IMG/VR virus record: IMGVR_UViG_2663762627_000006
Direction: 5' to 3' (one strand)
DNA length: 6,538 nucleotides
Source of the DNA: a virus
Taxonomy: Duplodnaviria; Heunggongvirae; Uroviricota; Caudoviricetes
The notes under the pieces are model-generated. The model did not search any database. It was given only the letters and a program-made list of their open reading frames with translations, and was not told the origin of the DNA. Positions 469 through 5,367 of this stretch are shown in pieces (position 1 is the stretch's first letter; each line of letters opens with the position of its first letter). The position numbers and the translations under genes were made by a program.

Positions 469-486
469 AGGCGCTAGTTAGTAAGG

Positions 487-512
487 CTTCCGTCATTCTG
501 CGATGACGGAAG
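487..512 (+). other. Perfect 10-bp inverted repeat hairpin (cttccgtcat / tctgcg loop / atgacggaag) about 20 nt after the orphan fragment's stop; possible residual terminator or operator
   Basis: Exact reverse-complement arms 487-496 and 503-512 with a 6-nt loop; no U-tract follows on either strand. Confidence 0.3.
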
Positions 513-570
513 TGCGGGCTGCGTACGGGAGAGCAATTGTATGAATAATATAAATATTCCGCTCACTCCA

Positions 571-632
571 TATAGCGATTTCTGATACAAACTTATCTAT
601 TGTGGTAAAATTATAGAAACAAACTTATAGCG
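571..632 (+). promoter_or_regulatory. Repeat-containing AT-rich region immediately upstream of the HNH-domain gene: direct repeat acaaacttat at 587-596 and 619-628, tatagcg at 571-577 and 626-632; candidate promoter/operator
   Basis: Direct repeats read from the sequence; 32-bp repeat spacing is about three helical turns; position is 10-70 bp upstream of the ATG at 643. No convincing Shine-Dalgarno precedes the ATG. Confidence 0.25.
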
Positions 633-642
633 TACTAACCAT

Positions 643-1425
643 ATGGACAATATTAATAAACACGGGCTCTCAAGAAGAATACCTGAGACAATAAAACGTC
701 AGATAAGGCAAAGGTGCGGCTTTGGCTGTGTAATTTGTGGATTTGGATTTTATGATTATGAGCATTTTAAACCTGACTTCGTTGATGCCAAAATACATGA
801 TCCGAATGGAATGACACTTCTTTGCTCCCAATGCAATCAAAAAAGAGCTCGTGGTAGACTTTCAGCACAGACAGTGGAAATAGCTGACAGAAATCCCAAG
901 TGCTTACAGGCTGGTTTTGCAAATGAAATGTTTGATTTTCATAATGAGCCTATAACAGTAAAATTTGCAGGAGTGACGTTTCATAACTGTCAAAATTTGA
1001 TTGTAGTCAACGAACAACCCATTCTTTCTGTGAAACCTTCACCCATACCACATGGACCGATGCTTTTATCAGGAATTTTCTGTAATTCTATTGGTAAGGA
1101 GACTTTACTGATAGATGAAAATGAATGGAAAGCTAAATCAGACAATTGGGATGTGGAGTGTACCGGCCCGCGTATAACAATACGACGTGGGCCAGGAGAG
1201 TTTGCCCTCGTTCTAAAAATGGAACCTCCAACAGGATTGATTGTTGAGCGTCTTGATATGTTGTATGAAGGGGTCAGGATGAAAGGAGATAAAGATCTGC
1301 TGGAAGTTTCGATTAATGGAGGTCCCTTGCACAGATGGCAATCATGCTCAATGTCAAATTGCCATACAGGGCTTGCGATTCAGGGCGGTATTAGAGCTGC
1401 TAATGATCCTTTGTATTGCGCCTAA
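643..1425 (+). CDS. HNH-motif nuclease-like protein (260 aa): N-terminal HNH/zinc-finger module (about residues 25-66) plus uncharacterised ~190-aa C-terminal domain; AT-rich, compositionally foreign
   Basis: Complete ORF ATG..TAA. Residues 25-66 fit the HNH pattern: C29-x2-C32, E40-H41 (candidate general base), N55, C61-x2-C64-N65 (GCVICGFGFYDYEHF...HDPNGMTLLCSQCNQ). Two 60-nt samples I hand-counted (643-702, 961-1020) are about 37% G+C, against a clearly GC-richer rusA sample. The C-terminal domain matches nothing I recognise and ends with a Cys/His cluster (HRWQSCSMSNCHTG). Confidence 0.75.
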   Translation: MDNINKHGLSRRIPETIKRQIRQRCGFGCVICGFGFYDYEHFKPDFVDAKIHDPNGMTLLCSQCNQKRARGRLSAQTVEIADRNPKCLQAGFANEMFDFHNEPITVKFAGVTFHNCQNLIVVNEQPILSVKPSPIPHGPMLLSGIFCNSIGKETLLIDENEWKAKSDNWDVECTGPRITIRRGPGEFALVLKMEPPTGLIVERLDMLYEGVRMKGDKDLLEVSINGGPLHRWQSCSMSNCHTGLAIQGGIRAANDPLYCA

Positions 1426-1467
1426 ATCCACTAAATTGATTTTCAACAATCAACTTGCCATAATTAA

Positions 1468-1504
1468 GTCACCGGAGTTTGAACTCCTCCGGTGACTTCT
1501 GCGC
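1468..1504 (+). terminator. Terminator-like hairpin downstream of the HNH-domain gene
   Basis: Perfect 10-bp GC-rich stem gtcaccggag (1468-1477) / ctccggtgac (1487-1496) with 9-nt loop, followed by ttct; lies 43 nt after the stop codon and just before ylcH. Confidence 0.5.
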
Positions 1505-3680: not shown

Positions 3681-4778
3681 TTAGAACTGGTAAACCAGAC
3701 CTACAGCAACGATGTCATCAGTGCTTACACCGAGTGCTTTAGTGAAGTCATTTTTGTCAAGCAGGTTGATTTTGTAATCAACGAAAGTAGACATATTTTT
3801 GTTGAAGTAATAGGTTGCACCTACATCAACATATTTGACTAAGTCCTGATCGCCCCATACTCCAAGATCTTTACCTTTAGATTGCAGGTAAGCAACGGAC
3901 GGACGCAGACCGAAATCGAACTGATATTGTGCAACAGCTTCGAAGTTTTGGGCTTTATTAGCAACGAAGTGATCAGCAAATACAGTCATATTCTGGGTTT
4001 CAGAATAGGTAGTGGCCAGGTAAATGTTGTTAGCGTCATATTTCAGACCTGCGGCCCAAACTTCTGCATTTTTACCGGAAGCAAATACTTCAGGAAGAAC
4101 TTTCCCTGCATTAACTTGAGTGTCGGTACGATCAGATTTCGCATAAGTTGCACCGATACCGAATCCTTCGTATTCATAGGTAGCAGAGAAACCGAAGCCA
4201 TCACCGTTACCTTCAGTGTAGTTATCGAAATCGCTACGATCGTTTTTGCCTTGGTACTGAGCAGCAAAGTTCAGACCATCAACCAGACCAAAGAAGTCGT
4301 TGTTACGATAGGTTGCAACACCAGTGGTGCGACCAGTCATGAACACATCTGTTTGGGTCCAGGTATCGCCACCGAATTCTGGCAGAACGTCAGTCCACGC
4401 ACCGATGTCGTATGCTACACCGTAGTTACGGCCGTAATCGATTGAGCCGTAGTCACCGAATTTCAGGCCTGCAAATGCAAGACGGGTTTTGTCTTTGGAG
4501 GAACCTTGAGATTCAGCGCGGTTGCCTTTGAATTCATATTCCCACTGACCGAAACCAGTCAGTTGATCGTTGATTTGGGTTTCACCTTTGAAGCCAAGAC
4601 GGGCATAAGTAGTATCACCATCATCTGCATCATTAGAGGAGAAGTAGTGCTTGGCATTAACTTTCCCGTACAGATCCAGCTTGTTACTGTCTTTATTATA
4701 AATTTCAGCTGCCTGAGCAGACATCGCCATCAGTACTGATGCAGCTACAGCAGAAATTGCCACTGTTAATTTTTTCAT
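3681..4778 (-). CDS. nmpC: General outer-membrane porin NmpC / Lc (OmpC/OmpF/PhoE family), 365 aa, apparently intact
   Basis: ORF track 3681..4778 minus; signal peptide [23 protein letters not shown] then AEIYNK; porin hallmarks throughout and a C-terminal aromatic residue (..VGLVYQF); orientation opposite to the phage genes and position between Q and lysis genes as in DLP12. Confidence 0.88.
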
Positions 4779-5367
4779 CGTGAGCCCTTTTTTTTGAACT
4801 ATTATTAAAAAATGATGTCACTGCGCGATAAATATTCATCTAATCAATGTGATTATTTCAAGATGTAAGTTTTGGTTTCTCGTTTGATTTGTGAAGTAGA
4901 TCTCTATTTTTATCTGAACTTTTTTCTATCGAATCCTATTCATAGCTCTTGGCTGAATAAAAATAAATCTATTAGCCAATTTATATTAACGGCTGTTATT
5001 TATAAGTGCTCTATAATTTGAAGGTTCAATTTAAATCGGCTAAAAATAACACTGGAAATTATTTGTTGGTTATTTGTTGAGGTTTTCTTATGTATTTGTG
5101 GTGGTGTTTTGAACACTCGGTAGCATTCTCATAAATATCATTCAGTGGTTTACGTACGTAAAAAATTGGTTATGCTGTTAAGAGTGGTTACTTCGTCACA
5201 CAGCTTAAACCCGCCGTCGAGCTGGTTTTTCCATTTTTTGAGTCTCGATATTAGCTGATAACTCAATACCTGAGTTATTCACTGACTCCGAGTCTGTTAC
5301 GTTTCTGCTTTTTTGCGATACGTTGTATTCCCTCAATTTACACCCGCTTTGTCTGCGAGGTGGGGTT
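4779..5367. promoter_or_regulatory. 589-bp AT-rich divergent intergenic region; expected to hold the nmpC promoter (minus) and promoter/leader for the lysis genes (plus); contains a consensus TATAAT at 5012-5017
   Basis: No ORF of any length with a convincing RBS; strongly AT-rich; perfect -10 hexamer tataat at 5012-5017 on the plus strand with no good -35; holin RBS gaggtgggg at 5356-5364. Confidence 0.35.
5059..5080 (+). repeat. Tandem direct repeat ttatttgttgg / ttatttgttga (11 nt x 2) in the nmpC-essD intergenic region
   Basis: Adjacent copies at 5059-5069 and 5070-5080, 10/11 identical; followed by a G/T-rich tract tgtatttgtggtggtgtttt. Confidence 0.4.

Follow-up and report, generated by a model that had tools for sequence, protein, structure and literature searches.

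A widespread two-domain HNH-type protein in a variable slot of DLP12-like prophages is a candidate single-gene anti-phage nuclease

The window analysed here, a 6,538-nucleotide stretch of viral DNA (IMG/VR record IMGVR_UViG_2663762627_000006, to which all coordinates refer unless another locus is named), covers the stretch from the nin region to the lysis genes in a DLP12-like lambdoid prophage of Escherichia coli. On its plus strand, at 643..1425 (stop codon included), it carries a gene for a 260-amino acid (aa) protein in which a predicted HNH nuclease domain is followed by an all-beta domain. We consider it most likely, with a probability of roughly 0.6, that this protein is a self-contained nuclease whose C-terminal domain gates or targets its activity and which protects the lysogen against other phages. 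The evidence comprises the predicted fold of the N-terminal domain, the conservation of its catalytic and zinc-binding residues, the mobility of the gene as a single unit and its location in a prophage hotspot. The product is best labeled a single-gene HNH nuclease that is widespread and uncharacterised; as a candidate for anti-phage defence it is good but unproven.

The open reading frame (ORF) at 643..1425 is a real and strongly conserved gene. It has several hundred full-length homologues, the 48 homologues whose N-termini were compared align at the same initiating methionine, and RefSeq annotates identical coordinates in E. coli E24377A as WP_001301145.1, a "hypothetical protein". These data agree with a preliminary description of this DNA, made from the sequence alone, which had read an ORF at these positions; it starts with ATG and encodes 260 residues. 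Chromosomal prophages of sequenced strains match the window at 98.9–100% identity, and the protein is matched by PHROG 6544 (function unknown; E 3e-141). The accession WP_001301145 is not mentioned in the literature that was searchable for it, including the DefensePredictor supplements. The preliminary description had also remarked that no Shine-Dalgarno sequence precedes the ATG at 643 and had suggested that this could reflect tight translational control of a potentially toxic nuclease. The first part stands, and the Enterobacter homologue likewise has no Shine-Dalgarno sequence. The second part is not supported: good Shine-Dalgarno sites do precede the homologues of Pseudomonas (taggaggagctATG), a Klebsiella phage and Vibrio cholerae, which makes the absence a local feature and not a trait of the family.

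The N-terminal domain, residues 1–92 (643..918, plus strand), is basic (pI 9.2) and is predicted to be a zinc-finger HNH, or His-Me finger, nuclease domain. AlphaFold2, given 49 diverse homologues, yields a confident model (mean pLDDT 89.1, pTM 0.79) in which this region has a strand at residues 38–41 that ends in E40-H41, a second strand at 57–60 and a helix at 62–69 that bears C64 and N65, an arrangement which, in the model, is the beta-beta-alpha-metal fold expected of an HNH nuclease. Fold matches to this domain were found in Cap5, EcoKMcrA, IscB, ScoMcrA, TagI, the GVE2 HNH protein and ZRANB3. The top Foldseek matches among the BFVD viral predicted structures were almost all HNH domains, none of them with E ≤ 0.001. 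At the level of sequence profiles the similarity is marginal: residues 29–68 align with positions 1–44 of Pfam PF01844 at 14.4 bits (cut-off 21.4; E 0.043), sub-threshold matches to the same model occur in 22 of 49 close family members (best E 0.0069), and some distant full-length members clear the cut-off (P0162, 25.0 bits). No NCBIfam model matches the window protein. The zinc-finger HNH domain that had been proposed for the N-terminus is thus upheld by the predicted fold, with the profile score as a marginal accompaniment.

Conservation was assessed in a close set of 49 homologues (identity of at least 50%) and in a wider set of 139 family representatives. The core motif of the window protein is C29-x2-C32, E40-H41-F-K-P44, H52, C61-x2-C64-N65 (727..837, plus strand), within which C29, H52 and C61 are present in 139/139 representatives of the wider set and C32 and H41 in 138 each. 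Position 64 is Cys in 115 representatives and His in 24, and position 40 is Glu in 103, Asp in 23 and His in 11. Position 65 is His in 124 of the 139 and Asn in only five, whereas it is Asn in all 49 members of the close set, the clade of the window protein. Also invariant in the close set are C25, C29, C32, E40, H41, H52, C61 and C87, with C64 nearly so. On sequence grounds, the family therefore has the putative catalytic His (H41) with a metal-positioning Asp, His or Glu before it (position 40), and a probable metal ligand after the second CxxC (position 65) together with a Cys4 or Cys3His zinc site (position 64). The structural Asn that HNH motifs have in the loop ahead of strand 2 was not found, as positions 55 (D/E/N/A) and 56 (G/K/A/N) are both variable. 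The preliminary description gave the position of every residue it listed correctly (C29-x2-C32, E40-H41, N55, C61-x2-C64-N65), but its choice of N55 as the motif Asn has to be abandoned: this residue varies even among close homologues, and the invariant loop residue is H52.

The substitutions that had been pointed out at the metal site, Glu-His for Asp/His-His and Asn for the last His, are real, and N65 proved to be specific to the window clade. The family as a whole is of the canonical CxxC...(E/D/H)H...CxxCH enzyme type, in which this clade has fixed a His-to-Asn change. Since position 40 is Glu, Asp or His and position 65 is mostly His in the wider family, the E-H...N arrangement is a clade-specific variant of "HNN" type. 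Asp/His...Asn sites are active in Cas9 (D839/H840/N863) and in T4 endonuclease VII (D40/H41/N62), and they bind Mg2+, whereas the His-rich sites of colicins prefer Zn or Ni. Because those two sites are active and bind Mg2+, we think it more likely that the E40/N65 pair represents a change in metal preference than inactivation. The natural variation between His and Asn, and among Glu, Asp and His, at this metal site provides a ready series for the study of metal choice in His-Me finger enzymes. Outside the CxxC...CxxC site, C25 (715–717) and C87 (901–903), which are both present in only 53 of the 139 representatives, are a clade-specific Cys pair that could form a disulfide or contribute an extra pair of metal ligands.

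Residues 93–250 (919..1392, plus strand) are predicted to form an acidic (pI 5.5) domain made up entirely of beta-strands, about 17 in number. A low-confidence, non-conserved tail comes next, residues 251–260 (1393..1422, plus strand; pLDDT <50 for residues 256–260), which includes C259. Across the 139 representatives, the C-terminal domain is as strongly conserved as the nuclease domain, with N160 and D170 invariant and E161, W162, W169, G175, R181 and L189 nearly so. The difference in charge also holds throughout the family, the median pI being 5.4 for the C-terminal domain and 9.0 for the HNH domain. The earlier remark that the fold after the HNH domain is unrecognised is supported, in that some 170 residues at the C-terminal end match no family and no fold. 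The accompanying suggestion of a sensor or target-recognition domain is still plausible, and is sharpened by the finding of the gene as single-gene mobile cargo in defence hotspots. The domain has no Pfam or PDB sequence match, no internal repeats by a repeat test, no SAVED match and no similarity to the McrA reader or to SRA, PUA, EVE or SBD readers, and no DNA-binding module, such as NUMOD or helix-turn-helix, was detected. No solved structure resembles it, and it belongs to no known type of catalytic module. Sequence searches of solved structures, in which either the protein alone or the family profile was the query, returned only a staphyloxanthin protein and HIV gp160, which were rejected as chance-level matches. 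A Cys/His cluster that had been described at the C-terminal end did not withstand comparison with the close set, where C235 is found in 23/49 homologues, C240 in 39/49, H241 in 5/49 and C259 in at most 2/49, the last column being mostly Glu, gap or Asp. We suggest, tentatively and as a claim with less in its favor than our general reading of the protein, that the C-terminal domain is a previously undescribed fold acting as an infection sensor or a reader of non-self DNA, in which case the family would be a new, very widespread single-protein immune system.

Some relatives extend this architecture. A subfamily in Vibrionaceae, Aeromonas and Providencia adds a SEC-C zinc motif at the C-terminus and keeps the canonical CxxCH; its members, one of them in an integron array of Vibrio sinaloensis (locus L045, 5272–6204), bear the NCBI name "SEC-C metal-binding domain-containing protein". 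C-terminal additions in other relatives include TPR repeats (P0132) and a CxxCxxCC domain (P0143).

An exhaustive profile search returned 2,696 clusters at 50% identity, 830 of them below E 1e-30, and among the matches listed the top ones are nearly all full-length. The family is phylogenetically patchy, and was found in only one of 50,697 phage genomes and in seven of 72,556 plasmids. To compare gene neighbourhoods, we used the four nearest ORFs on each side at 81 non-redundant loci covering Proteobacteria, Cyanobacteria, Planctomycetes, Actinobacteria, Chlamydiae, Deinococcus and one metagenome bin of the archaeon Methanothrix. Only one neighbour family recurs in at least three of these loci, and those three are all cyanobacterial; similarly, 77 IMG/VR loci gave 53 distinct neighbour pairs. 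No conserved partner or immunity gene was found across the 81 genomic and 77 IMG/VR loci, and there is no cognate methyltransferase, as expected of a solitary nuclease.

The settings of the gene are those of mobile cargo. The chromosomal integrons of V. cholerae and V. sinaloensis carry it as a cassette with no other ORF, flanked by attC repeats; in Hafnia it ends a P4-like satellite and adjoins the primase, and in Undibacterium it adjoins HicAB and a transposase. The nin region is its location in E. coli, Enterobacter and a Klebsiella phage, where it points the same way as O/P and ybcN-ninE-ybcO-rusA; in a Pseudomonas prophage it is on the strand opposite the early genes. At other loci the genes directly beside it include those for ApeA, a type IV restriction enzyme, Schlafen/AlbA_2 and HEC-05/06. 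In an Alcaligenes prophage (locus L009, 8983–11338) the gene is followed by those for a 245-aa HNH protein and a DUF4238 protein, and this small island sits between the phage lysis and tail genes. The 245-aa protein was considered as a paralog and rejected, as it is unrelated and has a C-terminal HNH domain (PF01844, 31.5 bits).

In the window, the gene belongs to a variable cargo module at 520..1435 (plus strand) which consists of an AT-rich leader and the ORF and was delimited by composition and by homology breakpoints. The GC content of the module is 38–43%, against about 50% in the flanks. When the window is aligned with DLP12-like prophages that have other cargo, homology ends at 448–519 and restarts exactly at 1436, ten bases past the stop codon, so that the tail of the module is only 10 bp. 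The slot is situated between the antirepressor gene and ybcN, and 81 of 5,426 complete E. coli genomes (about 1.5%) contain the whole module. In other E. coli strains, the same flanks enclose a BstA homologue (locus L101, 1878–2807; PADLOC E 3.6e-121), a HEPN protein with a 133-aa partner (locus L099, 2955–3751; Pfam HEPN, PADLOC candidate PDC-M28A) or a 169-aa protein of unknown function, WP_000990013.1 (locus L100, 1914–2423). BstA is a prophage abortive-infection protein, as shown experimentally (PMC8585504). The slot as a whole shows the pattern of a variable defence hotspot, and the alternative cargo genes of unknown function are themselves candidates for defence genes.

Based on these features, we propose that the basic N-terminal domain would be a DNase of the His-Me finger (HNH) type, stabilised by a Cys4 zinc site (C29, C32, C61 and C64), in which H41 would serve as the general base and E40 and N65 would hold the catalytic metal. 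By analogy with Cas9 and T4 endonuclease VII, this carboxylate/amide site should favor Mg2+ or Mn2+. The acidic all-beta domain most likely sets when, or on what, the nuclease acts. As there is neither an immunity partner nor a methyltransferase, the DNA of the host would be spared either because the C-terminal domain restricts cleavage to non-self DNA or because it holds the nuclease off until infection. The protein might thus act by direct restriction of a non-self DNA feature, in the manner of type IV enzymes, or through infection-triggered release of the nuclease, in the manner of abortive infection. The high conservation of the C-terminal domain across phyla favors a conserved ligand. The gene itself is mobile single-gene cargo of variable "defence" slots in prophages, a P4-like satellite and chromosomal integrons.

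Several considerations weigh against a gated defence nuclease. In principle, the change from His to Asn at position 65 could lower activity, and the acidity of the C-terminal domain throughout the family (pI ~5.4), together with its lack of a reader fold, mildly weakens the version in which it reads DNA directly. The case for defence is one of location, in which the defence neighbours are given without a background rate, and in distant taxa many neighbours are ordinary housekeeping genes. PADLOC-DB v2.0.0 (2023) contains no defence model that matches the protein beyond a chance-level PtuB hit (E 0.04). Lastly, the gene runs in the same direction as the early-right operon in three lambdoid settings, and lytic-cycle expression is possible.

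The last of these points is the basis of a different explanation, that the protein is a lytic-cycle nuclease which serves its carrier phage. Expressed with the early-right genes, it would take part in recombination or in the processing of junctions, on the model of NinG/Rap, or else would degrade host or competitor DNA. The position in the nin region, alongside O/P and ybcN-ninE-ybcO-rusA, and a weak PHROG and BFVD similarity to HNH proteins of NinG type are consistent with this. We consider it unlikely, however, because members of the family are also found as integron cassettes, next to housekeeping genes across many phyla and at the end of a P4-like satellite, because the Pseudomonas prophage has it on the opposite strand, and because a single phage genome in the 50,697 carries it. 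In addition, the cargo with which it alternates in the E. coli slot is BstA or HEPN, not recombination genes. The gene is found in integron arrays and beside HicAB, surroundings in which toxin-antitoxin cassettes with a stabilising effect are frequent, and this is what would be expected of a selfish addiction module, that is, a toxin held in check by a small protein or RNA antitoxin or by its own C-terminal domain so that the carrier element is stabilised. The weak translation signals in E. coli would suit a toxin, and the acidic C-terminal domain could mask the basic nuclease domain. Still, no small neighbouring ORF is conserved, the V. cholerae cassette is a single ORF and the 10-bp tail of the E. 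coli module is all that follows the stop codon; moreover, addiction and defence roles can coexist. An addiction function is accordingly quite unlikely as a replacement for a role in defence.

Two further explanations concern the HNH domain itself. The protein could be a free-standing homing endonuclease, whose C-terminal domain binds a long specific target and which spreads by cutting alleles that lack the gene. The order of an N-terminal nuclease followed by a second domain fits such an enzyme, as do the AT-richness of the gene, its clean insertion between conserved phage genes and the HNN-type motif, which is known from I-HmuI. A homing endonuclease would be expected to have DNA-binding modules and a constant target gene, intron or intein; here no NUMOD, helix-turn-helix or other such module was detected, the C-terminal domain is acidic and no neighbour or target gene recurs in the 81 and 77 loci. 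With strong purifying selection on both domains across phyla, near absence from virulent phages and occurrence as integron cassettes, we regard homing as very unlikely. Alternatively, cleavage could have been lost through N65 and the missing canonical Asn, leaving a degenerate HNH-like protein such as a DNA-binding regulator. The Pfam score under the threshold, the lack of conservation at the canonical Asn position and the presence of Asn in this clade where the wider family has His would all be accounted for. Yet E40, H41, H52 and N65 are invariant in 49/49 close homologues, and active Asp/Glu-His...Asn sites are known from Cas9 and T4 endonuclease VII; loss of catalysis is in our view highly improbable. 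A nuclease gated or targeted by its C-terminal domain and directed against other phages thus remains our preferred reading.

If a defence role is correct, a compact (260 aa), partner-free nuclease system would join the known immune repertoire, and its carriers would include about 1.5% of complete E. coli genomes and many other bacteria. The slot between the antirepressor gene and ybcN of DLP12-like prophages would then be a defence hotspot that can be mined for cargo, in which BstA, a HEPN protein and two unknown genes have already been met. It would also tie a new protein fold to the control of an HNH nuclease.

Upstream of the ORF, the window begins with the end of an IS1 insertion sequence (IS), with InsA on the minus strand (1 to about 289; Pfam Zn_ribbon_InsA and HTH_Tnp_IS1), followed by the C-terminal remnant of a P22AR-type antirepressor gene (298–468). 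The end of IS1 cuts the antirepressor gene at about 289, and in E. coli E24377A the same gene is interrupted by IS66, with homology to the window restarting at 298. Two different IS elements have therefore inserted no more than about 10 bp apart in one gene. Within the AT-rich leader, a consensus scan suggested a weak candidate sigma-70 promoter at 582..611 (plus strand; CTGATA-18-TAAAAT, with TG before the −10 hexamer; 9/12 matches). The slot is bracketed by two stable hairpins, both lacking a U-tract and both belonging to the conserved flanks: one at 486..513 (plus strand; −19.2 kcal/mol, z −3.9), which is shared with locus L100, and a 12-bp hairpin at 1466..1498 (plus strand; −20.4 kcal/mol, z −4.8), whose flank is also found in the DLP12 prophages of K-12 type. 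For the hotspot, these hairpins may serve as insulators, as terminators or as boundaries of recombination.

A 33-aa ORF (1520–1621) downstream of the module overlaps the start of ybcN and is annotated in every slot variant examined, and is thus part of the conserved flank and not cargo. The gene order then continues with ybcN, ninE, ybcO, rusA, ylcG, quuD, a porin gene on the minus strand, essD (holin), rrrD (lysozyme) and Rz/Rz1. The porin gene (3681–5100) is intact, encodes a 365-aa protein of OmpC/NmpC type, and is preceded by a very AT-rich stretch (27–34% GC, about 4800–5100).

Among known systems, several share single features with the window protein. The similarity to PtuB of Septu and to the retron-Eco7 HNH protein (TIGR02646) is not significant (PADLOC PtuB E 0.04), and whereas Septu is marked by a significant model match and an adjacent PtuA, the window protein has no PtuA ATPase or retron partner and no NCBIfam match. 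Sirona and Nemetona are HNH-like integron cassettes of V. cholerae N16961 with anti-phage activity; they are described as single-gene systems and distant kin of His-Me/HNH nucleases and NinG, and Sirona is present in 34 genera of Pseudomonadota (bioRxiv 10.1101/2024.07.02.601686). The window protein family resembles them in also forming Vibrio integron cassettes. Of the top 120 hits of searches seeded with two Vibrio family members, none was from V. cholerae N16961, and a close relationship is unlikely, although the family may already overlap a named system. The nearest precedent in architecture is DS-7, or "SVIR" (WP_225403053.1), a single-gene E. coli defence system of the DefensePredictor study, which is listed in the supplement as having a Cap5-like HNH domain at the N-terminus and a beta-rich C-terminal domain (PMC13092281). 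The C-terminal domain of DS-7 is a baseplate-like DUF2634, unlike that of the window protein, and homology between the two proteins was rejected (hhalign probability 0.3%).

The HNH-SAVED effector Cap5 of CBASS (PDB 7rwk) likewise has its HNH domain at the N-terminus, where it is governed by a C-terminal sensor. The alignment with Cap5 is limited to the HNH part (98 residues), and the window protein has neither the SAVED domain nor the CD-NTase operon of a CBASS effector; without SAVED, cyclase or conserved partner, a cyclic-nucleotide trigger would have no evident source. EcoKMcrA (PDB 6ghc), the type IV modification-dependent restriction enzyme of the e14 prophage, is also encoded by a prophage-borne single gene of similar size and has no partner methyltransferase. 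Its domain order is reversed, with the reader at the N-terminus and the HNH domain at the C-terminus, and no relationship at the sequence level was found, the C-terminal domain of the window protein being acidic, without similarity to the McrA reader and without the recognisable modified-base reader of type IV enzymes. Taken as analogies, however, these two are the closest in kind, and we expect that the window protein works most like the prophage-borne EcoKMcrA and sensor-gated HNH effectors such as Cap5.

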